Source: an uncultured Gammaproteobacteria bacterium | Lineage (GTDB): Bacteria; Patescibacteriota; Microgenomatia; Levybacterales; UBA12049 | Assembly: GCA_964416445.1 (NCBI GenBank) | Contig: CAYQEE010000002.1 | Coordinates: forward strand, 106,691 to 170,690 | Length of the DNA: 64,000 bases | Reading direction: 5' to 3' | In this document: piece by piece, positions 503 through 44,034 of the stretch | Layout of the letters: each line of letters starts with the position of its first letter | How positions within the stretch are numbered: the stretch's first letter is position 1 | Notes under the pieces: model-generated | Told to the model about the DNA's origin: nothing | Database searches by the model: none | Seen by the model: only the letters and a program-made list of their open reading frames with translations | Program-made: the position numbers and the translations under genes

Positions 503-1588
503 ATGGGATTAACTTTTTTTACACCAGGGCCTTCACAACTATTCCCTACCATTCCTTTGTATATGCAAAAAGCACTAAAGGAAAACATTTGTTCCATTTC
601 TCACCGAAGTAAAAGTTTTGAAAATATTTTCATTAATACCGTACAAGGCTTACATACTCTTCTAAATATTCCGCAGGATTATAAAATATTTTTTCTCTCT
701 TCAGGAACTGAAGCCATGGAGCGAATTATAGAGAATTGCGTTGAAACTGAAAGTTTTCATTTTATTAACGGTTCATTTTCAAACCGATTTTTTCTCACTG
801 CGCAAGAAATAAAAAAAAATCCCAAAAAATATGAAGTAGCTTTAGGAAATGGGTTCGATTTTGAAAATATCAATGTTCCCAAAGAAAGTGAACTCATATG
901 TTTAACACATAATGAAACAAGTACTGGCGTTATCTTACCTTTAGAAAAAGTCTATCCTTTTAGAAAAAAGCATCCAAATGCACTTTTTGCACTTGATATT
1001 GTCTCTTCTGCACCACTAACTGAAGTTGATTTTTCACAATTTGATACTATTTTTTTCTCGGTCCAAAAAGGTTTTGGGTTACCCGCAGGACTTGGGGTTC
1101 TCATTGTAAGCCCAAAAGCTATGGAAAAAGCAACATATCTTTACAAGAAAAATATTTCTATTGGTAGCTATCATAACTTCATTTCCTTGGTAAAATATGA
1201 GGAAAAACATCAAACAGCAGAAACTCCATCAGTATTACATATCTATCTTCTCGGTGAAATTGTCCAAGAGATGTTAACAGCAGGTATTGAGAGGATCCGA
1301 AAAGATATTGAACAAAGAGCAGAAAGTTTATATAGTTTCTTAGATCATAGTAACAATTTGCAAGCTTTTGTAAAAGAACACGCTTTTCGATCCCCAACTG
1401 TTATCGTCATGCAAACAGGTAGCAAGACAATACGTATAAAAAAATATTTAGAAGGGAAAGGACTCATTGTAGGAAGCGGTTACGGTAAAAATAAAGAAGT
1501 CCAACTGAGAGTAGCTAATTTTCCTGCTATACCCTCGTCTGAGACAGAAAAGCTTATTAAATACTTAGAGGAGTTTCAGAATATTTAA
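503..1588 (+). CDS. serC: phosphoserine aminotransferase (class V aminotransferase)
   Basis: ORF track 479..1588 with GTG at 479. ATG at 503 (MGLTFFTPGPSQ...) is the more plausible start. Class V fold motifs (SSGTEAM, THNETSTG); gene order serA-serC. Confidence 0.8.
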   Translation: MGLTFFTPGPSQLFPTIPLYMQKALKENICSISHRSKSFENIFINTVQGLHTLLNIPQDYKIFFLSSGTEAMERIIENCVETESFHFINGSFSNRFFLTAQEIKKNPKKYEVALGNGFDFENINVPKESELICLTHNETSTGVILPLEKVYPFRKKHPNALFALDIVSSAPLTEVDFSQFDTIFFSVQKGFGLPAGLGVLIVSPKAMEKATYLYKKNISIGSYHNFISLVKYEEKHQTAETPSVLHIYLLGEIVQEMLTAGIERIRKDIEQRAESLYSFLDHSNNLQAFVKEHAFRSPTVIVMQTGSKTIRIKKYLEGKGLIVGSGYGKNKEVQLRVANFPAIPSSETEKLIKYLEEFQNI

Positions 1589-6167: not shown

Positions 6168-8045
6168 TTATACTACTATTCCTAAAAAAGGAGAATCTTT
6201 TTTAACTTTTGGTCCGATGAGCTGTTCAAAATCTTCAGATTCAATTGTTTCCTTTTTTAACAGCGCATCTGCAAGTTTATCTAATTCTTTTCCTAACCCA
6301 TTCAATACTGAAACTGCAACAGCATATGCTTCATCAACTATTCGTTTTACTTCAGCATCAACCTTTGATTGCATCTCAGGGGAAAGCACTCTTTCATCAT
6401 ACATACTTCTTTTGTCAGTACTCAAATTGATTGGTCCTAAATCACTCATACCATACTCAACTACCATTGTTCTGGCAACCTCTGTGGCTTTTTCAATATC
6501 ATTGGAAGCACCAGTAGTCATTTCATTGAAAATCAACTTTTCGGCAACTCTTCCTCCCAACATTACTGAAACCTGCTCCCACAAATGTGTTTTGGTTTCA
6601 TGAGAACGTTCAATTGGCTCCATCATTGTATGCCCTAAACTCATTCCACGACTTACTATAGAGATTCTATGTACTGGATCCATATGAGGCATAAACCAAC
6701 TTACCAAGGCATGCCCTGCTTCATGGTAAGCAGTCATTTTTTTATCCTCATCTGACTGTAGTCTTCTCTTCTCTGGGCCAAGTTTAACTTTTGTTGCTGC
6801 TTCTTCTAGATCCTTCATATCAATGGCTTTTTTATTTAATCTTGCAGCTGAGATGGCAGCTTCATTAAGCATGTTTTCCAAATCTGCACCTGAAAAGCCA
6901 ACTGTTCTTTTAGCGACTTTTTCCCAAATTACTCCATCTGCGAAAGGTTTCCCTTTTGCGTGAATGGCAAGAATAGCCTTTCTACCCTCAATATCTGGCA
7001 TATCAAGTACCACTTTCCTATCAAAACGCCCAGGGCGAACAAGTGCCGGATCGAGAACATCAGGTCGATTTGTTGCAGCTATTACAATTAACTGTTCGTT
7101 TGGAGTAAATCCATCCATTTCTACTAAAATTTGATTTAATGTTTGTTCTCTTTCATCATGCCCACCCATAATACCAACACTCCTTTGTCTACCAATTGCG
7201 TCAACTTCGTCAATGAAAATAATTGCTGGTTGAGCTTTTTTGGCTGTACTAAATAAATCCCGAACTCGCGAAGCACCAACACCTACAAGCATTTCCATAA
7301 ATTCGCTCCCTGCCATAGAAAAGAAGGCAACCCCAGCTTCTCCAGCTGTGGCCCTTGCCAATAATGTTTTTCCTGTACCGGAAGGCCCAACCATTAATAC
7401 ACCTTTAGGAGTACGAGCACCCATTGCTCGATATTTGTCAGGATGACGAAGAAAATCAACGATTTCAGTAAGTTCTTGCTTCGCTTCGTCGACACCAGCG
7501 ACATCAGTAAAAGTAACTTTTGGGTGATCTTTATTAAATAATTTTGCTCGAGATTGCCCAAAAGAAAAAATATTTTCTTGTGCTCCCCGAGCTTGTCTGA
7601 AGATAAAATAAAAGAAAGCTATCATCAAAATAATAGGCAGAACAGAAGAGATAATATTTAACCAACCACTTAGACCTGAGTTATCATTTACGACAACTTT
7701 TGTTTTATCGAGTGGTACACCTGCATCCCGAAAAATTGAATAAACATTAGAATTTGGTTCCTTGGTACTTTCAACAACTTGTCCTCCTTTTTCATACACA
7801 GTCAATGTTGTATCATTGACGACAATCTGCGATACTTTTCCTGCTTTTACATCATTAATAACATCTGAGATTGCTTCTGTCTTATGAGGAACAAATGATG
7901 AATTAAACCCAACAAGCAAAAAGAGAGTAATGAAAAAAAGAAAGCCGTAAAGAAAAATATTTTTCCACGTAAGATTTACTTTTACTTTAACTATCTTTTT
8001 TTTATTATTTTTTTTGCCGTTCTTCGTAGCTGGAACCATCAACAT
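6168..8045 (-). CDS. ftsH: ATP-dependent zinc metalloprotease FtsH
   Basis: N-terminal TM, AAA Walker [16 protein letters not shown] zinc site. Confidence 0.9.
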
Positions 8046-19110: not shown

Positions 19111-19157
19111 AAAAAACCCGCATTTCGCGGGAATCTGTTTTTACGAAATCAGATTCC
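19111..19157 (-). promoter_or_regulatory. ilvA attenuator: antiterminator GGAAUCUG/CAGAUUCC and intrinsic terminator CCCGCGAAAUGCGGG-U6, ending 12 nt before the ilvA ATG
   Basis: Read on the minus strand. The hairpin plus U6 directly precedes the start codon, and its 5' arm overlaps an alternative 8-bp helix with the region just after the leader stop codon. Confidence 0.6.
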
Positions 19158-19158
19158 G

Positions 19159-19209
19159 CTACATACGGTTACTAATTGCAATAATTGAAATTTGTTTTAC
19201 GTTTCTCAT
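19159..19209 (-). CDS. Ile-rich leader peptide MRNVKQISIIAISNRM (ilvA leader, 16 aa)
   Basis: ATG begins 17 nt after the ilvC stop. Four Ile within ISIIAI. The stop is followed immediately by the antiterminator/terminator. Confidence 0.6.
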   Translation of the reverse strand: MRNVKQISIIAISNRM

Positions 19210-20325: not shown

Positions 20326-22014
20326 TTATACATACTTATCAATATATTCCACTAATCTCTTTAGCCCTTCGCGTAATTTGTCCTCGTCTAATCCGTATGA
20401 TATACGAATGTGACTTTCTCCACCTAAGCCAAAAGCGCTTCCAGGGACAATTGCAACTTTTGCCTCATGAATAAGTCGTACTGCTAAATCATAATCATCA
20501 ATATTCCCTTCAACTTTTGCAAATGCATAATAAGCTCCTTCCGGAGTTACTAATTTTATTTTTTGAGATTTGTTCAACACTTCAACAACTACTGCACGTC
20601 TTTTTTCAAATGCTTCTTTATACTGAGCTACCATTGTTTGCTTGCCTTTTATTGCAGCAAGTGCGGCATATTGAGATACTGCAGTTGGACAAGTAACTAA
20701 TGAATCATGTATTTTAAATATTTGAGTAATAAGTTTTTTATTGGCAATAATATATCCAATTCTCCACCCTGTCATAGCATACGACTTAGATACGCCAAAA
20801 ATTGAAATGACACGATCACTTACTTCTTTAAAACTACCTATGCTAATATGCTTTTTGCTATCAAAAGTAAAATATTCATAAATCTCATCCGATATGATAA
20901 ATAAGTTATATTGTATCGCGATACGAGCTATCTGCTGTAGCTCATCATATGTATATACTTTTCCTGTCGGATTGCATGGATTACAAACAAGAATTGCTTT
21001 TGTTTGTTGAGTTATAGCTCCTTCAACTTTTGATGAATCAAAAATCCACCCATTTTCTGTCTCTGTTAATGGAACAAAAATTGGCCTACCTCCGTGACGA
21101 GCAATTCTTGTTTGTGTAATATGCGACGCATAATCAGGCGTTAAGACAATAATTTCATCATTTGGATTTAACAGCGCAATAAAAGTTGCCATAAGTGCTT
21201 CAATAGCACCATGTGTTACAAGAACTTGGTCTTTTGAAACAATAATTTTATTATCCTTTCTGACTTTTGTAACAATTGCTTCTCGCAGCGCGTCGATTCC
21301 ATAACCAGAAGTATATTTATCTGTTTTTCCCGACTTTATTGCTTCTATAGCAGCTTCTTTGATAGAGTCATCAGTATTGAATGACGGAATACCTTGTGCA
21401 AGAGAAATAACGTCTTCTTGGGATTCCGCCATTAATTGCAATCGTTTAATAGCTGATACTTCAATTGAAGAAGCCACATATGATGGCTCTTTAACAACAT
21501 CCGAAAACTTGCCAGTATACGCATTACCTTCTTTTGTTAAGGCAATTCTGCCTGAACGCACGTATTCTTTAATTCCAAACGGTTTCAGTAGAGAATATAA
21601 TGAATTAATCTCTTCTTCGGAACCAGATTTTTCAATCGTAACAAAATCACTCCCGACATAAACAATTTTTGCTCGAAACAAATAAACAAGATCTTCTACT
21701 TCCCTTCTTTGATCGGGATTTTTTGTTGCTACTTTTATAAGTGAGATTTCTTTGAATAAAAGCTCCTCATCTGTTTTTTCAAACACTTTAACAACTTCGA
21801 TAATTCTATAAAGTTGTTTTACTATTTTTTCGATTATATGTGAGTCCGTTTTAACAACTACAGTAAACCGCGAAAGACCTTTTGTTTCAATTTCTGAAAC
21901 TGTTAAACTTTCAATATTAATTTTCCGTCGGAGGAATAAATCCGCAATTCGATAAAGCACACCGGGTTTATTATCGGTAAAAATAATGATTGTATATTGT
22001 TTTATATTTTTCAT
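20326..22014 (-). CDS. ilvH: fusion protein: acetolactate synthase small/regulatory subunit (ACT plus ALS_ss_C, about aa 1-175) joined in frame to a class I (aspartate/aromatic-type) aminotransferase (about aa 190-562)
   Basis: N-terminus IIIFTDNKPGVLYRIADLFLRRKINIESL (IlvH ACT). C-part AQGIPSF...YTSGYG...GWRIGY fold-type I PLP aminotransferase. Single uninterrupted 562-aa ORF. Confidence 0.7.
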   Translation of the reverse strand: MKNIKQYTIIIFTDNKPGVLYRIADLFLRRKINIESLTVSEIETKGLSRFTVVVKTDSHIIEKIVKQLYRIIEVVKVFEKTDEELLFKEISLIKVATKNPDQRREVEDLVYLFRAKIVYVGSDFVTIEKSGSEEEINSLYSLLKPFGIKEYVRSGRIALTKEGNAYTGKFSDVVKEPSYVASSIEVSAIKRLQLMAESQEDVISLAQGIPSFNTDDSIKEAAIEAIKSGKTDKYTSGYGIDALREAIVTKVRKDNKIIVSKDQVLVTHGAIEALMATFIALLNPNDEIIVLTPDYASHITQTRIARHGGRPIFVPLTETENGWIFDSSKVEGAITQQTKAILVCNPCNPTGKVYTYDELQQIARIAIQYNLFIISDEIYEYFTFDSKKHISIGSFKEVSDRVISIFGVSKSYAMTGWRIGYIIANKKLITQIFKIHDSLVTCPTAVSQYAALAAIKGKQTMVAQYKEAFEKRRAVVVEVLNKSQKIKLVTPEGAYYAFAKVEGNIDDYDLAVRLIHEAKVAIVPGSAFGLGGESHIRISYGLDEDKLREGLKRLVEYIDKYV

Positions 22015-23702: not shown

Positions 23703-23728
23703 AAAAAAAATCCCCGCTGTAAGCGGGG
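23703..23728 (-). terminator. ilvB attenuator terminator CCCCGCUUACAGCGGGG-U8, abutting the ilvB ATG
   Basis: Perfect 6-bp GC stem plus 8 U on the minus strand. An alternative pairing is available with the upstream GCGGGG segment (23757-23771). Confidence 0.65.
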
Positions 23729-23763
23729 TTAAGTTTGTTTGCTCCAAGCAATCAAACCCCGCG

Positions 23764-23811
23764 TTAAGGGGTAATGACGACAAGGAGTTTAAGTGTGCTT
23801 TTCAATATCAT
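23764..23811 (-). CDS. branched-chain leader peptide MILKSTLKLLVVITP (ilvB leader, 15 aa)
   Basis: Regulatory run LLVVIT. The stop codon lies inside segment CCCCUUAACGCGGGG. Confidence 0.65.
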   Translation of the reverse strand: MILKSTLKLLVVITP

Positions 23812-28584: not shown

Positions 28585-29184
28585 ATGGTAGTTTCGCAAG
28601 AATATTTACAAAATAGACTTCCATTTACTCCGGCAGGTAGCAATCATATTACCCATTCAATTATTTGGCCGCTCCCAAAAACACATACATCCGAAAGAAC
28701 ATTTTTAGCTATGCATGCTCACACGGCTAGACTGTCATCGTTACCTTTAAGACGAGATCATATCATGAGTATCTTACAGCAGGAAGCCAAACCATATGTG
28801 CCCCATACAGAAGTGTTATATAAAAAATATGAAGGAGGTACGGTAAAAGAAGAAACGCATCCTAATTTAGTTGGTTTAAAAAGATTTACCTCTGCAGAGG
28901 AATATGTACAAATTGGAAATGATACATTTATTCATCAAACAGATACTTTACTAAGTACTAATTCAGACAGTATTCACCCGATAGGAATTCGGCATACACG
29001 AAGAATGTTTAATCCTGAGGAATCATTCGAAATAGTGGAATATCCCAAGGGAGCAAGATACGAATTACATGGATCTCCCGATCAAGCGACGTTAGTTATT
29101 CTGTATGACCTTCCCACAGCTCAAGCTATTAATGCACCAACGCTTTTTAGGCCTCCTCTACCGAGAGAGTCATGCAGAAGATAA
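28585..29184 (+). CDS. hypothetical His-rich protein
   Basis: 199-aa ORF with no recognisable family. Slightly GC-richer than its surroundings. Convergent with leuB, overlapping it by 15 nt. Confidence 0.35.
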   Translation: MVVSQEYLQNRLPFTPAGSNHITHSIIWPLPKTHTSERTFLAMHAHTARLSSLPLRRDHIMSILQQEAKPYVPHTEVLYKKYEGGTVKEETHPNLVGLKRFTSAEEYVQIGNDTFIHQTDTLLSTNSDSIHPIGIRHTRRMFNPEESFEIVEYPKGARYELHGSPDQATLVILYDLPTAQAINAPTLFRPPLPRESCRR

Positions 29185-30249
29185 ATTTTCAAGAAATTCT
29201 ACTATTCTATCACCTACCACGGCGGTTGAAATAATTTTATTTTGTGCAGAAGTAATATCTCTTGTTCCATGTCCTTCAGTCAGTAACATCTGTACTGCAT
29301 TATAAATAGCATTTCGTTCATTTACTAAACCAAAACTATACTCCAACATCATTGCAGCTGATAAGATACAACCAATAGGATTGGCTATATTTTTCCCTGC
29401 TGCTTTTGGAAAAGATCCATGAATTGGTTCGAATAATGAAGTCTTCAATCCAATCGAAGCTGATGGTAATAAGCCGATAGAACCACTAATAACTGATGCC
29501 TCGTCAGTTAAAATATCACCAAACATATTTTCAGTAACTATGACATCAAATTCCCTTGGTCTTTTAATTATTTGCATTGCTGCATTATCAACAAACATAA
29601 AATCTACAAGAATATCAGAGTAATCATGCATCATAGATTGTACTGTTTCACGCCATAACCGTGAGGTTTCCAAAACATTCGCTTTATCTACGACAGTTAA
29701 TTTTTTCTTTCTTCTCTTGGCTAATTGAAACGCATAGGTAACAACACGCTGAATTTCATCTCTCGTGTATTCAGAAGTATCATACGCACTCGTCCGATTC
29801 TCATTTCTTCCTCGTTTACCGAAATATATTCCTCCAATAAGTTCTCGTATGACAATAAAATCAACTGCTTGAATAATTTCTTCTTTTAATGGTGAACGAG
29901 AAAGAAAGTTTCTAAAAGTAAATATGGGACGGATATTTGCATATAAACCTAAGTTCTTTCTCATTGCAAGTAATCCTTGTTCGGGACGAATTGCAATTTT
30001 TGGATCATTATCATACTTAGGATCTCCTATGGCTCCAAAGAGTATTGCATCTGATGTTTCACAAATTTCTCTCGTCTCCTCAGGATATGGACTACCTGTT
30101 TTATCAATCGCTATTGCACCTATTAATCCATCCACAAAGGTGAATTCATGATGATATTTTTGGGCAATTTTTTTTAAAACCTTTATAGCTTGTTGGGTAA
30201 TCTCAGGTCCAATACCATCACCAGGAAGAACTGCAATTATTTTTTTCAT
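29170..30249 (-). CDS. leuB: 3-isopropylmalate dehydrogenase
   Basis: AVLPGDGIGPE and NLFGDILTDEAS motifs. Confidence 0.9.
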   Translation of the reverse strand: MKKIIAVLPGDGIGPEITQQAIKVLKKIAQKYHHEFTFVDGLIGAIAIDKTGSPYPEETREICETSDAILFGAIGDPKYDNDPKIAIRPEQGLLAMRKNLGLYANIRPIFTFRNFLSRSPLKEEIIQAVDFIVIRELIGGIYFGKRGRNENRTSAYDTSEYTRDEIQRVVTYAFQLAKRRKKKLTVVDKANVLETSRLWRETVQSMMHDYSDILVDFMFVDNAAMQIIKRPREFDVIVTENMFGDILTDEASVISGSIGLLPSASIGLKTSLFEPIHGSFPKAAGKNIANPIGCILSAAMMLEYSFGLVNERNAIYNAVQMLLTEGHGTRDITSAQNKIISTAVVGDRIVEFLENLSSA

Positions 30250-30255
30250 ACGCTC

Positions 30256-30870
30256 TTAATAGGATATTGAATAGTCATTTTCTCTTGTTTTTTCAAACTC
30301 TTCAATTTTTGTTTTCATACTAAGTATATAGTCAATATCATCATACCCATTCATAACACATATTTTTTTATATGGATTCAAATCAAAATGCTCATACATG
30401 TTCATTGAGGGAATGCCAACAACTTGTTTGTCTACATTAATATCAATTATTGTTTTGGAGTCATGTAGTATAGTATTAAATAACTCGTTAAGAAAGTTCT
30501 GAGAGACCTGGACAGGTAATAAACTATTATTAAGCGCGTTATTCTTGAAAATATCTGCAAAGTAACTTGAAATTACCGCTTTAAATCCATAATCGGCTAA
30601 AGCCCACGCCGCATGTTCTCTACTCGACCCACATCCAAAGTTATATCCTGCAACCAGAATTTCACCAGTATAATCTGGATGATTAAGAATAAAGTGTGGT
30701 TTCGGATTCCCATCCATATCATATCGCCAATCTCGAAAAACATTTAATCCAAAACCTTCACGAGAAGTTGCTTTTAAAAAACGTGCAGGAATAATTTGAT
30801 CTGTATCAACATTCTCCATTTGTAATGGAACTGCTGTTGAAGTAATTTTAGACAATTGTTTTCTTTTCAT
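30256..30870 (-). CDS. leuD: 3-isopropylmalate dehydratase small subunit
   Basis: Aconitase swivel-domain motifs GCGSSREHA. Confidence 0.9.
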
Positions 30871-32276
30871 ATCATATCCCTGACATCAGTCACATATCCC
30901 GTTATTGCAGCAGCCGCAGCAGTTATTGGGCTAGCAAGGAATGTTCTCGCTCCCGGGCCTTGTCTACCCTGGAAATTTCTGTTTGAGGTTGAAATACAAT
31001 ATTTGCCTGTTGGGATTTTGTCATCATTCATGCCTAAACAAGCAGAGCATCCCGAACCACGCACATCAAAACCAGCTTCAAGAAAAATTTTATCTAATCC
31101 TTCTTTTCTTACTTGTGCTTCAACTTGTTTTGAGCCAGGCACAACAAGAACAGTCACATCACGAGGCTTTTTCTTTCCTTTTACGATTTGCGCTACCATT
31201 CGAAAATCTTCTATTCGAGAATTGGTACAACTACCAAGAAAAACATAATCTACCTTTTGTCCAATCATTTTTTTCCCGGGCTGTAAACCCATATAAGTCA
31301 TTGCTTTACGAAAACTCTCCTGCTGTGAACTGGTTTCAAATATATCTTCTGTTGGAATAGTTTTTGTAATTCCCATGCCCATTCCAGGATTAGTTCCATA
31401 TGTTATCATCGGTTCGATATCCTTTGCATCTATAGATATTTGCTTATCATAAATTGCTCCTTTATCTGTTCTTAACGATCTCCAATAAGTAACAGCTTGA
31501 TTCCAAGCTTCGCCTTTTGGCATAAATTTGCGATTTTTCATATATGCAAATGTTGTATCATCGGGAGCAATCAATCCACCTCGCGCTCCCATTTCTATAC
31601 TCATATTACAAATAGTCATTCGTGCTTCCATCGATAAACTTTCAATAGCTGAACCTGAATATTCAACAAAGTACCCTGTACCTCCTGCTGTGGAGATTTT
31701 TGAGATGATATAAAGAATAATATCTTTAGAAACAACGCCCTTCCCTAATTTACCTTCAATTTTGATATTCATTGTTTTTGGTTTATATTGCAAAATTGAT
31801 TGAGTAGCCAATACTTGCTCAACTTCACTTGTTCCTATTCCAAAGGCAATACATCCAAACGCCCCATGTGTCGATGTATGACTATCCCCACACACAACTG
31901 TCATTCCTGGTTTGGTTATACCGAGTTCAGGACCAATAACATGAACTATTCCTTGATAAGGGTGTCCTAATCCATAAAGTTCTACTTGAAAATCTTCACA
32001 ATTTTTCTTTAACATCTCAACTTGTCTTCTTGATAATTCTTCGCGAATTGGTTTATCTTGATCTTTGGTTGGAACATTATGATCCATCGTAGCCCATGTC
32101 CTTTTGGTCCGAAAAACAGGAATACCTCGCTTACGTAAGCCTGAAAATGCTTGCGGGCTTGTCACTTCATGAACGAGATGCGCATCGATATAAAGAATTG
32201 CTGGATAGTCTTCTTTTTGAAATACTACATGGCTGTTCCAAATTTTTTCAAAAAGTGTTTTCGGTTCACTTTGCAT
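30867..32276 (-). CDS. leuC: 3-isopropylmalate dehydratase large subunit
   Basis: Aconitase family with CGDSHT, GSCTNSR and CSACLG motifs. Confidence 0.9.
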
Positions 32277-32280
32277 ATTA

Positions 32281-33774
32281 TTATCCTATTATTTTACTTA
32301 AACTATCGAGATATGCTCGTACTGTAGCAACAATAATATCGGTATCTGATCCGAAACCATAGAAAACATTACCTTTAAAGGCAATCTGAATATGCACTTT
32401 TCCTATATCATCACTCCCCCCAGTTACTGCCTGAATAAGGAATTCTTCAAGATTCACTTTCTTTTTAATAATTTTATTTACTGCATTAAATGCTGCATCT
32501 ACGGGACCATTTCCTGTCGAACTAGCAATTTCCTCAATTCCATTTACCAATAATTTGACAGAAGCCATTGGATATAAGGGAGTTCCACAAACCACTTCAA
32601 GAAACTCTAATTTTATTCCTGCGTCTTTAATAGATCCTCCCATAAGGATATGCAAATCATTATCATTGACGTCCTTTTTCTTATCTGCTAATGTTAAAAA
32701 TTTTTCATAGATTCCATCTAATTCTTGCGACGTTACTTTATACCCAAGTCTCTCTAAATGATGATTCAACGCAGATCTACCTGAACGTGCTGTCAAGGCT
32801 AGTGAAGATTCATTAATACCAACATCTTTGGGATTTATTATTTCGTAAGTAAATCGATTCTTTAAAATTCCGTTTTGATGAATTCCTGATGAGTGCGCAA
32901 AGGCATTTCTTCCAACAATTGCTTTATTTGCTTGGATTGGCATTCGCATCAATCGTGAGACTAGCCTACTTGTAGGATAAATTTTTCTTGTATTAATATT
33001 CGATAATACCTTGAGATCTTTTCTTGTTTTCATAATCATTACTGCTTCTTCTAAAGAGGTATTTCCTGCTCGCTCCCCCACACCATTTATAGTTACTTCC
33101 ACTTGCCTTGCACCATTTTGAACTGCAGCAATTGTATTAGCAGTTGCCATTCCTAAATCATTATGACAATGAACTGAAACAATAACATTTTCAATTCCTT
33201 TTACATGTTCATAAAGATATTTAATTTTTTCACCAAATTCGTTAGGTAAACAGTAGCCAGTGGTATCAGGAATATTAACAGTTGTTGCACCTGCCTCAAT
33301 TGCTGCTTGGATAAACTTTGCTAAAAATTCATTTTCTGTTCTCCCCGCATCCATTGCAGAAAATTCGACATCTTCCACATATTGTTTTGCATGTTTCACT
33401 GATGCAACTGCTTGTTCCAAGATCTTTTCTCTAGTAGATCGGAATTGATGAATAATATGAATATCAGAACTACTAATAAATGTATGGATTCGTTTATTCT
33501 TTGCAAATTTTAACGATTCAGCTGCACAATCAATATCTGCAGGTATTGCTCGTGATAGGGCACAGATAATTGGCTCTGTAACAACCTTTGAGATCTCTTG
33601 TACAGAATGTAAATCTCCTGGACTTGATATTGGAAATCCAGCTTCAATAACATCTACACCAAGTTCGCTAAGAGCAGTCGCAACTTCAATTTTTTCAACT
33701 GTATTGAGTTGGCAACCCGGTACCTGTTCTCCATCACGTAGTGTTGTATCAAAAATATAAACTTTATCTTTCAT
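32281..33774 (-). CDS. leuA: 2-isopropylmalate synthase
   Basis: [11 protein letters not shown] and HCHNDLG motifs, with a LeuA dimerisation/regulatory C-terminus. Confidence 0.9.
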
Positions 33775-33785
33775 ATTTTACCTAT

Positions 33786-33806
33786 AAAAAAACCCGCTCT
33801 TCGCGG
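33786..33806 (-). terminator. leu attenuator terminator CCCGCGAAGAGCGGG-U7, ending 11 nt before the leuA ATG
   Basis: Its 5' arm UCCCGC can alternatively pair with GCGGGA, which overlaps the leader stop codon (antiterminator). Confidence 0.65.
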
Positions 33807-33839
33807 GAGTTCGTTTGTTACTAGCCAAACAATCCCGCC

Positions 33840-33884
33840 TTAAACGGAAAGGAGTGAAAGGCCAAGAAGTAAATTTTTTATCAT
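33840..33884 (-). CDS. Leu-rich leader peptide MIKNLLLGLSLLSV (leu leader, 14 aa)
   Basis: 6 of 14 residues are Leu. Stop UAA directly abuts the GGCGGGA antiterminator segment. Confidence 0.65.
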   Translation of the reverse strand: MIKNLLLGLSLLSV

Positions 33885-33893
33885 AGTTCGTTT

Positions 33894-33923
33894 ATTGTAA
33901 CAATTATGAGACTATTTCGTCAA
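33894..33923 (-). promoter_or_regulatory. promoter TTGACG-N18-TACAAT for the leu leader
   Basis: -10 ends 9 nt before the leader ATG. Confidence 0.5.
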
Positions 33924-33930
33924 TAGTACT

Positions 33931-34860
33931 TTATTTTATAGATATTGTTGTGCACCATGATTCATATTCTTTATCTTCTCCTCTAACTATTTTAAAGAAT
34001 TTATCTTGTAATTTTGCTGTAATTGTCCCCCGTTTTCCGTTCCCAATAATTCTCTTATCAATTTTTGCTACCCAAGCAACCTGACAGCCAGTACCTGAAA
34101 GAAACACTTCGTCAGCAACATATAATTCACTACGATCTACGGTTCTTGCCTCAATGGGAATACCCATATCTTTTGCAATTTTCATGAGTGATCTTCGAGT
34201 AATTCCTTCGAGAACATCATCTCCTGCAGCTGGAGTAATGAGTACACCATCACGAATAATAAATAAATTTTCAGCTGAACCTTCACAAACACTTCCTGCT
34301 TCAGATAACATTATTGCTTCATCGTATCCATTTTCATGAGCCTCTTTTCTTGCTAGAGCTGAGTTTACATAACCTCCCGATATTTTTGCTCGTGAAGGTA
34401 TTGCATTATCTGATATTCTCCTCCATGAAGAAACCATTAATGATAATCCTTTACTAACTGGTAAATATTCACCTAAAGGGATCATATATAATGCGAAATC
34501 CAGTACTGTATCTGCTAAATTAGGTCCAAGATTTGTATGACCAACATATGCATAGGGACGTAAGTAGACATCGGTTTGTGGCCTATTCTTTTTGATTAAA
34601 TCTAGCGTGTTTTCACGAAGTTGCTCTTTTGTATAAGGAAGACTACAGCCTAATATTTTTACTGATGATAAAAAACGTTTATAGTGATCATCAATTCTAA
34701 AAACTGAAATACTTCCCTTTTTGGTATTTACATATCCGCGAATTCCTCCAAAGATTCCTGTACCATATTGGAGAGCATTCGTCATAATTGAGACTTTTGC
34801 GTCTTCAATTTTTATGATATTTCCTTGAAAATATGCATACGGAAATGGTGTTGAATTCAT
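33931..34860 (-). CDS. ilvE: branched-chain amino acid aminotransferase (fold type IV)
   Basis: YGTGIFGGIRGY and EGSAENLF...TGCQV motifs. Confidence 0.85.
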   Translation of the reverse strand: MNSTPFPYAYFQGNIIKIEDAKVSIMTNALQYGTGIFGGIRGYVNTKKGSISVFRIDDHYKRFLSSVKILGCSLPYTKEQLRENTLDLIKKNRPQTDVYLRPYAYVGHTNLGPNLADTVLDFALYMIPLGEYLPVSKGLSLMVSSWRRISDNAIPSRAKISGGYVNSALARKEAHENGYDEAIMLSEAGSVCEGSAENLFIIRDGVLITPAAGDDVLEGITRRSLMKIAKDMGIPIEARTVDRSELYVADEVFLSGTGCQVAWVAKIDKRIIGNGKRGTITAKLQDKFFKIVRGEDKEYESWCTTISIK

Positions 34861-42763: not shown

Positions 42764-43678
42764 TTAACTATCTTTACATATCTTTGTTCCGATAAAATCA
42801 GGGTTAAAAGTATTTTTTACCCAAACAGGTATTCCTTTTAGAGAGACAGGTATCATTGCCTCGGGATGTAAAATTTTTGCTCCCTTTTTTGAAAGCAATA
42901 AAGCATCTTCGTAGCTTAATTGAGAATATAACTTCGCATTTTGATTTACATGAGGATCACTACAATACACGCCGTTAACTTCTTTCCAAAGAATTACTTG
43001 CGTTGCATCGAAAATATAGGCAAGCAAAGTAGCACTATAATCAGAACCTCCCCTTCCTAAACTTATAATTGTTCCATTTTTTGTTGATGCAAAAAAACCT
43101 GTCACTATAGGAACTATTTTTTTTCTGATAAGTGGAACTACTAGCTTATCAGCGTTACATGTTGTTTCTTTCACAAGTACAATTGGATTGGATAAATCTT
43201 TCAAAATAATAATCTCCGAAGCATTTATTGCTCTTGCTGAATTCTCATACTTATTCAATGCCGCAGCTACTAGATGACTACTAAATCGTTCCCCATACGT
43301 TATGATATATTCATAATCAACTTGAGAAAGTGTCCTTCTCTGTTTCAAATTGTCTTGTAATGTTTTGTATAAATCATACAGAGATTCTTCTAGATTCTGG
43401 AAAATATTTTTGGGTAATTGTAACTCTTTAAGAACCTGCATATGAAGTTCATAGAGCAGTCGCAATTCATAATCTCCTTCTTCAAATTCGTTTTCTTTAT
43501 ATTTATTAAATACTGAGATAAGTTTATCTGTTACCTTGTACATTGCGGAGACGACAACAAGAATATCGTCATGCCTGCGAAATTTTCTAATAATTTCAGC
43601 TACATGTAATATCTTACCTCCAGACTCTAGTGATGATCCACCAAATTTCATTACAATCATACTCTGTTTTATAAACAT
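42764..43678 (-). CDS. aspartate kinase, catalytic domain only (304 aa, no ACT regulatory domains)
   Basis: VMKFGGSSL N-terminal motif of the amino-acid kinase family. Too short to hold the usual two C-terminal ACT domains. Confidence 0.75.
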   Translation of the reverse strand: MFIKQSMIVMKFGGSSLESGGKILHVAEIIRKFRRHDDILVVVSAMYKVTDKLISVFNKYKENEFEEGDYELRLLYELHMQVLKELQLPKNIFQNLEESLYDLYKTLQDNLKQRRTLSQVDYEYIITYGERFSSHLVAAALNKYENSARAINASEIIILKDLSNPIVLVKETTCNADKLVVPLIRKKIVPIVTGFFASTKNGTIISLGRGGSDYSATLLAYIFDATQVILWKEVNGVYCSDPHVNQNAKLYSQLSYEDALLLSKKGAKILHPEAMIPVSLKGIPVWVKNTFNPDFIGTKICKDS

Positions 43679-43702
43679 AAAAAAACCTCCCTTTGGGAGG
43701 TT
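43679..43702 (-). terminator. thr attenuator terminator AACCUCCCAAAGGGAGGUU-U7, abutting the aspartokinase ATG
   Basis: An alternative 12-bp antiterminator GGGAG(U)GUUUGUA/UACAAACCUCCC involves the last leader-peptide codons. Confidence 0.65.
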
Positions 43703-43723
43703 TGTAAGTTTATTTGTTATTCA

Positions 43724-43792
43724 CTACAAACACTCCCAAACAAATTGGGTAATTGTAGTAATACTAATACTTATATATTGATAATGTTGCAT
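43724..43792 (-). CDS. Thr/Ile-rich leader peptide MQHYQYISISITTITQFVWECL (thr leader, 22 aa)
   Basis: Run ISISITTIT (4 Ile, 3 Thr) like the E. coli thr leader. Stop UAG lies inside the antiterminator 5' strand. Confidence 0.65.
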   Translation of the reverse strand: MQHYQYISISITTITQFVWECL

Positions 43793-43798
43793 AAAAAT

Positions 43799-44034
43799 AA
43801 AAAAAACCGCCGTCAAATATTACGCTTGTAATATTCAAAGGCGGATATTCTCCGTGGTTCCACTTTGATTCCTCTTACGAGGCACTTATCAGTTCTTTAT
43901 CGGAAACTATCCGTTTTAGCTTCTCAGGTTGTCCTCCGGAAAGACTTTATGCTGAAAGCTTACACTCATTGGCTTTCTTCTCTATACATGCCATCTTCCC
44001 CTTCTCGTCTAAGTCCAATCGCTAAATTAAAACT
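43799..44034 (-). promoter_or_regulatory. T-box riboswitch-like leader (about 235 nt) ending in its own intrinsic terminator, upstream of the thr leader peptide
   Basis: Minus strand. Antiterminator CAAAG-[UGGAACC bulge]-A-CGGA-GAAUA-UCCG-C-CUUUG (+43836..43867). Stem III-like CCUC-GUAA-GAGG just upstream. AGAGA bulge followed by hairpin GAAAGC-N12-GCUUUC (Stem I distal-like). Terminator CCGCCUUUGAAUAUUAC...GUAAUAUUUGACGGCGG-U8 (+43799..43844) sequesters CUUUG. Confidence 0.55.

Follow-up and report, generated by a model that had tools for sequence, protein, structure and literature searches.

The 64,000-nt stretch of DNA analysed here (hereafter, the window) carries the genes leuA, leuC, leuD and leuB in this order, and an attenuator-type element was found on the minus strand between ilvE and leuA, running from position 33923 down to 33786. 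The genes and the parts of the element are as follows.

33931-34860: ilvE, the upstream neighbour
33918-33923, minus strand: −35 hexamer TTGACG, located by promoter consensus scan
33894-33899, minus strand: −10 hexamer TACAAT, TG-extended, separated from the −35 hexamer by an 18-nt spacer (promoter consensus scan)
33840-33884, minus strand: leader ORF MIKNLLLGLSLLSV with a TAA stop (ATG at 33884, stop codon at 33842-33840)
33849-33872, minus strand: region 1, the putative regulatory Leu codons TTA CTT CTT. CTT. CTC CTT (codons 5, 6, 7, 9, 11 and 12)
33833-33849, minus strand: small 1:2 hairpin UUCCGUU-UAA-GGCGGGA, whose loop is the stop codon, −5.3 kcal/mol alone
33826-33838, minus strand: region 2, antiterminator 5′ arm GCGGGAUUGUUUG, beginning 2 nt past the stop codon
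33803-33817, minus strand: region 3, antiterminator 3′ arm CAAACGA..UCCCGC, the last 5 nt of which are the terminator 5′ arm
33786-33807, minus strand: intrinsic terminator CCCGC-GAAGA-GCGGG plus U7 (regions 3:4), −9.0 kcal/mol, composed of CCCGC (33807-03), GCGGG (33797-93) and U7 (33792-86), likewise located by consensus scan
32281-33774, minus strand: leuA (2-isopropylmalate synthase), the first gene predicted to be regulated, ATG at 33774, NCBIfam match above the curated cut-off
30867-32276, 30256-30870 and 29170-30249: leuC, leuD and leuB, downstream of leuA, NCBIfam matches above the curated cut-offs

Layout of the leuACDB leader region

The leader is read as ATG ATA AAA AAT TTA CTT CTT GGC CTT TCA CTC CTT TCC GTT TAA, and Leu accounts for 6 of its 14 codons; at the 9.8% Leu frequency of the window, the probability of 6 or more Leu among 14 codons is 0.0013. 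After the leader stop come, in this order, GGCGGGAUUGUUUG, GCUAGUAA, CAAACGAACUCCCGC, GAAGA, GCGGG and U7, and then 11 nt lead to the leuA ATG. GGCGGGA (33839-33833) abuts the leader stop, and its GCGGGA can pair with UCCCGC (33808-33803) in a helix that extends through UUGUUUG:CAAACGA to 13 bp, with a computed energy of −16.8 to −18.4 kcal/mol. This antiterminator and the terminator are mutually exclusive, because the helix between GCGGGAUUGUUUG and CAAACGA..UCCCGC uses the CCCGC of the terminator. The small 1:2 hairpin forms the inner part of a more extended pairing, that of the Leu-codon region with region 2.

Much of this layout had been claimed in the original prediction, and each claimed part was located: the promoter TTGACG-N18-TACAAT on the minus strand, the 14-codon leader with six Leu codons, the stop codon abutting GGCGGGA with its antiterminator partner UCCCGC, and the overlap of UCCCGC with the 5′ arm of a terminator whose U-tract ends 11 nt before the leuA ATG. 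To this description our analysis adds the extra 1:2 pairing, the lack of a Shine-Dalgarno sequence in front of the leader ORF, and the position of its start codon, with 9 nt between TACAAT and the ATG. As an annotation, the element marks the promoter, a candidate regulatory ORF and a conditional terminator of leuACDB, and it would explain why mere 11 nt of upstream sequence precede the leuA ATG.

The context of the leader start codon was compared with that of other genes in the window. A Shine-Dalgarno-like motif (GGAG, GAGG or AGGA at −22 to −5) was found in 7 of 53 ORFs of the window, and 10 of 52 genes have a −10-like hexamer (TAnnnT) whose end lies exactly 6 nt upstream of the start codon, compared to 0-3 genes at most other distances. 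A peak of −10-like hexamers 6 nt before start codons is a signature of leaderless mRNAs, which suggests that such mRNAs are common in this organism. Since the start codon lies near the −10 box (6-13 nt in the family described below) and no Shine-Dalgarno sequence is present, the leader ORF is probably leaderless or nearly so, and the position of the promoter predicts a 5′ UTR of about 0-3 nt for the leader AUG. Deinococcus deserti (PMC4007540) and Corynebacterium diphtheriae (PMC5784534) provide documented examples of leaderless leader peptides.

Homologous leaders and covariation in two folds

Searching the whole window with Rfam at the gathering threshold returned one tRNA only and no leader family. 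When positions 33650-34050 were scanned at E ≤ 10, neither Leu_leader (RF00512) nor the Leu/phe leader (RF01743) appeared, and the best leader-type scores, those of Trp_leader and Phe_leader (both 15.7 bits, E 1.6 and 5.2), were at chance level. T-box (RF00230) was likewise absent from this region at E ≤ 10, while the same kind of scan does detect a T-box-like RNA at 43834-44028. An Rfam scan of 12 related loci gave nothing at the gathering threshold. Because no Rfam model matches it, the element belongs, as judged by model match, to no described RNA family, and the comparison with Leu_leader that had been proposed for it places it outside that family as well as every other family in Rfam.

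To find homologous leaders, LeuA was scanned against one genome per species together with a metagenome collection, which gave 156 loci, and the clade with LeuA 70-87% identical to that of the window was then searched by iterative nhmmer followed by covariance-model searches. An exact look-up of the LeuA protein matched two short assembly contigs from sequencing runs, and the locus is present in identical form in runs SRR12266071 and SRR12266072. We identified 26 distinct leaders upstream of leuA, that is, 25 further ones in relatives in addition to the window's own. One candidate (L009) was left out of the family, as the Leu-rich segment there appears to be the C-terminal end of a longer ORF upstream. 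All 26 leaders contain an ORF of 13-16 codons with 4-7 Leu (consensus MK..(L)NLLNLALLTV) and an in-frame stop codon located 0-4 nt before region 2, and 25 of them have a TTGAC./TTGAT.-N16-18-TAnnnT promoter, the −10 hexamer ending 6-13 nt before the start codon. Leu makes up 37% of the leader residues, compared to 9.8% in the genes of the window. The N-terminal half of the peptide is variable and the C-terminal ...LLTV is conserved. Gaps within the ORF are of 3 or 6 nt whereas gaps past the stop codon are of any length, and this difference suggests that the frame is translated. CTT and CTC account for 124 of the 143 Leu codons in the 26 leaders, as against 38% of Leu codons in the genes of the window. 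We considered the use of rare codons as the sensor and rejected it, since only one Leu codon is commoner than CUU in the window.

In four loci (L001, L084, L087 and L090), the leader lies about 900 nt upstream of leuA and a gene for an EfeU/FTR1-like iron permease intervenes (684-1511 in L087). Being located between the Leu leader and leuA, this permease would be under leucine control, and a link between it and the Fe-S enzyme LeuCD is conceivable.

In a plain MAFFT alignment analysed with RNAalifold, no more than 4 terminator pairs were recovered. Such a sequence-only alignment leaves the arms of different subgroups out of register, so two covariance models were built and the sequences were re-aligned, model R1 being fitted to the fold with the 1:2 pairing plus terminator and model R2 to the antiterminator fold. 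Each resulting alignment consists of 26 matches, namely 25 leu leaders and one ilvB-type leader from L092, with the leader of L091 falling below the cut-off. With the caveat that each alignment leans to the fold it was fitted to and that the sequences are related, 87.8% of cells were paired in the 1:2 plus terminator fold, compared to 41-51% when partners were slid by 1-3 columns, and changes on both sides were seen in 13 of 27 pairs; none of 500 shuffles reached any of the observed measures. Compensatory changes occurred in 9 pairs of the family-wide 1:2 helices and in 4 of 8 terminator pairs. Under the same caveat, the antiterminator fold was 81.8% paired, against 41-58% in the slid controls, with changes on both sides in 12 of 21 pairs and again 0 of 500 shuffles, and it was still 77.5% paired on the alignment fitted to the rival fold. 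Regions 3:4 are CCGCC/GGCGG in most leaders, CCCGC/GCGGG in the window, CCCCGC/GCGGGG in L007 and L103, and UCCCC/GGGGA in L092, and region 2 changes in step with them in each of these groups. L089 has CCCACC/GGUGGG as terminator arms and no predicted antiterminator.

The original prediction, which read the locus as a leader-peptide attenuator, was to be given up if orthologous leuA upstream regions lacked a conserved Leu run or alternative helices. Both are present, with compensatory changes in both folds, and the attenuator reading is supported by the 25 further orthologous leaders that keep the Leu run, the stop position, the antiterminator and the terminator.

These data also bear on a simpler view of the hairpin, in which it is the terminator of ilvE, the ORF arose by chance and leuA is transcribed from elsewhere. 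In its favour, no other terminator lies between the end of ilvE, at 33931, and the hairpin. However, a strong conserved promoter stands between ilvE and the hairpin, the antiterminator and 1:2 helices covary, and in L012 the upstream gene has a separate terminator and the leader is still present. Moreover, the 11 nt between the U-tract and the leuA ATG leave no room for another promoter. We find this explanation hardly credible.

Masked folding, sister elements and proposed mechanism

The alternative folds were examined by masked folding, a model calculation in which the bases under the ribosome footprint, set to reach from 15 nt on the 5′ side of the first A-site base to 12 nt on its 3′ side, were barred from pairing. 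Placing the A site on the stop codon gave the terminator in 22 of 22 sequences, and placing it on at least one Leu codon gave the antiterminator in 21 of 22, the one exception being L089. The window's leader formed the antiterminator with the mask at all six Leu positions. With no ribosome, the long 1:2 hairpin plus the terminator was the minimum-energy state in 20 of 22 sequences; in this hairpin UUAAGAA is the partner of the Leu codons CUUCUUAA and GACGG that of ACCGUU, and the loop contains the stop codon. By a stricter criterion for switching, 20 of 22 real sequences switched, compared to 8.5% of shuffles of the spacer from stop codon to terminator; for the window alone, 10 of 100 spacer shuffles still switched. 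Taken together, the Leu count in the 14-codon ORF and the family-wide switching relative to shuffles make chance a poor explanation.

The window's leader, folded to minimum energy, adopts the antiterminator (−31.2 kcal/mol, z = −2.4). In the untranslated RNA, the antiterminator (−26.8 kcal/mol) and the terminator state (−25.7 kcal/mol) account for about 70% and 28% of the ensemble, respectively, and the extended 1:2 fold is the minimum-energy state at transcript lengths of 70-76 (−15.3 kcal/mol). Since the untranslated RNA of the window slightly favours the antiterminator, the prediction that absence of a ribosome gives termination depends there on the order of co-transcriptional folding.

The pairing in the 1:2 fold affects how conservation of the ORF should be read. 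Much of the CUUCUU run is paired in this fold, so its conservation alone does not prove decoding, and conservation of the C-terminal Thr-Val codons is explained by RNA pairing rather than by the peptide. This is relevant to the idea that the locus is a gene for a small hydrophobic peptide with its own function and its own terminator, placed beside leuA by chance or for co-expression. MIKNLLLGLSLLSV is indeed hydrophobic and ...LLTV is conserved at its C-terminus, as such a gene would predict; however, the conserved last codons are accounted for by the pairing of ACCGUU with GACGG or, alternatively, with GGCGGU, and the N-terminal half varies. The element also always precedes leuA or an operon containing leuA, and a terminator belonging to the peptide gene would cut off the downstream operon, as no other promoter is found in the 11 nt before leuA. 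A peptide gene of this kind is thus very unlikely.

Elements of the same architecture had been claimed for ilvB, ilvA and the thr genes. The leu-leader covariance model weakly matched exactly those three places in the window, and their leader ORFs proved to be rich in the matching amino acids.

23705-23811, minus strand: ilvB leader MILKSTLKLLVVITP, weaker R1 match, ORF rich in Leu/Val/Ile
19111-19209, minus strand: ilvA leader MRNVKQISIIAISNRM, Ile-rich, between ilvC and ilvA, weaker R1 match
43679-43788, minus strand: Thr/Ile-rich leader MQHYQYISISITTITQFVWECL, before aspartate kinase, homoserine dehydrogenase and thrC, R1 28.3 bits

That each of these ORFs is rich in the amino acid or amino acids of its own operon is hard to explain unless the ORFs are decoded.

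Several observations were made around these elements. The ATG of the ilvB leader lies 6 nt past a TAGAAT −10 box and looks truly leaderless. The mechanically called start of the ilvB ORF (TTG at 23783) falls inside the ilvB leader, so the call is too far upstream; the NCBIfam match of this ORF begins only at residue 28-30. Right after ilvB, a 562-aa ORF (20326-22014, minus strand) has an aminotransferase match that starts only at about residue 176, and its N-terminal ~175 residues could be a fused or mis-joined IlvN-like small subunit. In the ilvA leader, the antiterminator is GCGGAAUCUG / CAGAUUCCCGC and the terminator is CCCGC-gaaau-GCGGG-U6, and no promoter was recognised. The thr leader has the terminator CCUCCC-aaa-GGGAGG-U7 just before the aspartate kinase gene (42764-43678), and it matched the Rfam Phe_leader model with 34 bits (E 6e-4), below the gathering threshold. 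The T-box-like leader at 43834-44028 (minus strand; RF00230 51.4 bits, E 2e-10, the gathering score of 93 not being reached) has its own terminator and a promoter TTGACA-N17-TAGAAT at about 44068-44040. Because it lies directly upstream of the Thr/Ile leader, the thr operon appears to have two tandem sensors of tRNA charging. Among the relatives, L092 contains a second, divergent attenuator (1197-1293, minus strand) about 100 nt from its Leu leader, with the ilvB-type ORF MKSVKNLIVVLITP, scoring 37.8 bits with R1 and 55 bits with R2.

We also considered whether the leuA leader could be an RNA switch toggled by a protein, a tRNA or a metabolite instead of a ribosome, with the ORF incidental to a conserved structure. 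Most of the nucleotides conserved in the ORF (CUUCUUAA and ACCGUU) are paired in the 1:2 fold and could be conserved by structure alone, a T-box-like RNA is used nearby in the same genome, and the leu and ilv leaders of Streptomyces coelicolor are described as other than classical attenuators in the account given in PMC1262725. On the other hand, the frame of the ORF is kept through 3-nt and 6-nt indels, and in all 26 leaders the distance from promoter to start codon is fixed and the in-frame stop lies 0-4 nt before region 2. Leu is kept through changing codons (CTT/CTC/TTA/CTA/TTG), the paralogous elements carry Ile or Thr codons that match their own operons, and the RNA of the leuA leader region, which matches neither T-box nor any other Rfam family, is only about 100 nt long. 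A switch of this type is therefore unlikely.

We consider it highly probable that the element is a ribosome-mediated transcription attenuator, through which the supply of charged tRNA-Leu determines how far transcription continues into leuACDB. Observed were the features in the sequence, the geometry, conservation of the features and covariation in both folds; from these we infer that the ORF is translated, where transcription starts, that the ribosome stalls and that the element responds to leucine. Our confidence was not set higher mainly because of S. coelicolor, where attenuator-like leaders of leuA and ilvB behaved non-classically on mutation, in work cited in PMC1262725.

In the proposed mechanism, transcription would start at the leader AUG or a few nt before it, and a ribosome would be on the 14-codon ORF while RNA polymerase makes the next ~55 nt. 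When leucine is plentiful, the ribosome would reach the UAA and its footprint would lie over region 2 (GCGGGAUUG...). With region 2 covered, region 3 would pair with region 4 (CCCGC/GCGGG followed by U7), resulting in termination 11 nt before leuA. When Leu-tRNA is scarce, the ribosome would stall at one of the six Leu codons (mostly CUU/CUC), covering region 1 and leaving region 2 free, so that the 13-bp 2:3 antiterminator could form, the terminator would be excluded and polymerase could enter leuA. In an RNA with no ribosome, the Leu-codon region would pair with region 2, and termination would be favoured again.

Both classical attenuation and its occurrence in different phyla are well documented (PMC1262725 with the references therein; PMC4833913). 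The element is a fresh case of this established attenuator type, in a conserved family absent from Rfam and in an unusual lineage. The lineage labels can be seen from FtsH (6168-8045, minus strand), whose closest relatives that carry a label, 74-82% identical, are nearly all labelled Levybacteria, Levyibacteriota, Microgenomates or Patescibacteria. Several of the FtsH relatives (P0005, P0037 and P0100) are about 1000 aa long with intein / LAGLIDADG domains inside, and the FtsH of the window has none. To our knowledge, organisms of the Levybacteria/Patescibacteria type usually lack amino-acid biosynthesis. Among the papers searched, none links the Candidate Phyla Radiation with leader-peptide attenuation. 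We tentatively propose, as a joint claim, that this family of ribosome-mediated attenuators may be the first to be recognised in the Candidate Phyla Radiation (Levybacteria-labelled), with ORFs that have no 5′ UTR, with the last sense codons and the stop codon taking part in a three-state switch, and with a regulon placed on sensors of tRNA charging. If so, ACC GUU would have region 2 as its partner in the 'off' fold and region 4 in the 'on' fold, and, together with the ilvB, ilvA and thr sisters and the tandem T-box, a lineage with small genomes would sense tRNA charging for its whole branched-chain and threonine biosynthesis regulon. With 26 distinct sequences and covariation in both folds, this RNA family, which Rfam does not cover, is a candidate addition to that database. 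The leu element and its sisters also form a compact natural set, probably leaderless, for the study of coupling between leaderless translation and transcription.

Comparison with known systems

T-box leaders (RF00230) are likewise sensors of tRNA charging that lie in front of amino-acid genes and switch between a terminator and an antiterminator. However, a T-box binds the uncharged tRNA directly, is about 200 nt long and contains the conserved T-box sequence, none of which applies to the leuA leader.

For the actinobacterial LEU element of leuA, the proposed mechanism involves a pseudoknot and the Shine-Dalgarno box of leuA, without a terminator (PMC1262725).

Outside the window's own clade, the nearest LeuA proteins (60-67% identical) are those of Bacteroidota. 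There, the same position upstream of leuA is occupied by leaders in which antiterminator and terminator arms come after a short hydrophobic ORF (Mariniphaga, Draconibacterium, Bacteroides pyogenes, Paludibacter, Runella and others). They were seen 100-250 nt upstream of leuA in L017, L019, L021, L028-L034, L053, L057, L070-L079 and other loci, and gave no Rfam match. In contrast to the family of the window, their ORFs have 17-23 codons and are often rich in Ile plus Leu (e.g., MNLQNNIALLSLIIGIILLIKKK), those of the Runella type being mainly Leu, and their arms (GAGAAUGG / CCAUUCUC / GAGGAUGG-U) are unrelated. By eye, their upstream sequences look like the Bacteroidota type (TAnnTTTG-like), TAnnTTTG being the Bacteroidota promoter consensus. 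Homology between the two groups was rejected, the covariance-model matches being at chance level (best E 0.17-0.6).

The enterobacterial leu leader (leuL; RF00512) shares with the element a short ORF carrying a run of Leu codons, overlapping 1:2, 2:3 and 3:4 helices, and a terminator with a U-tract before leuA. E. coli leuL uses rare CUA codons, whereas the family of the window uses the common CUU/CUC Leu codons. Its ORFs also differ from leuL in having no Shine-Dalgarno sequence and in starting 6-13 nt past the −10 box, and the gene order of the enterobacterial leu operon differs from the leuACDB of the window. No sequence or structure homology to RF00512 was detectable, even at E ≤ 10. The mechanism of attenuation in the enterobacterial leu operon is established (Kolter and Yanofsky 1982, as cited in PMC5784534).

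The leaderless attenuators of Deinococcus deserti and Corynebacterium (ilvB, leu and trp) belong to different lineages, and their transcription starts have been mapped, whereas the start proposed here is inferred from the position of the promoter. As in the family described here, their leader ORFs start at, or about 1 nt from, the transcription start and control amino-acid biosynthesis (PMC4007540; PMC5784534).
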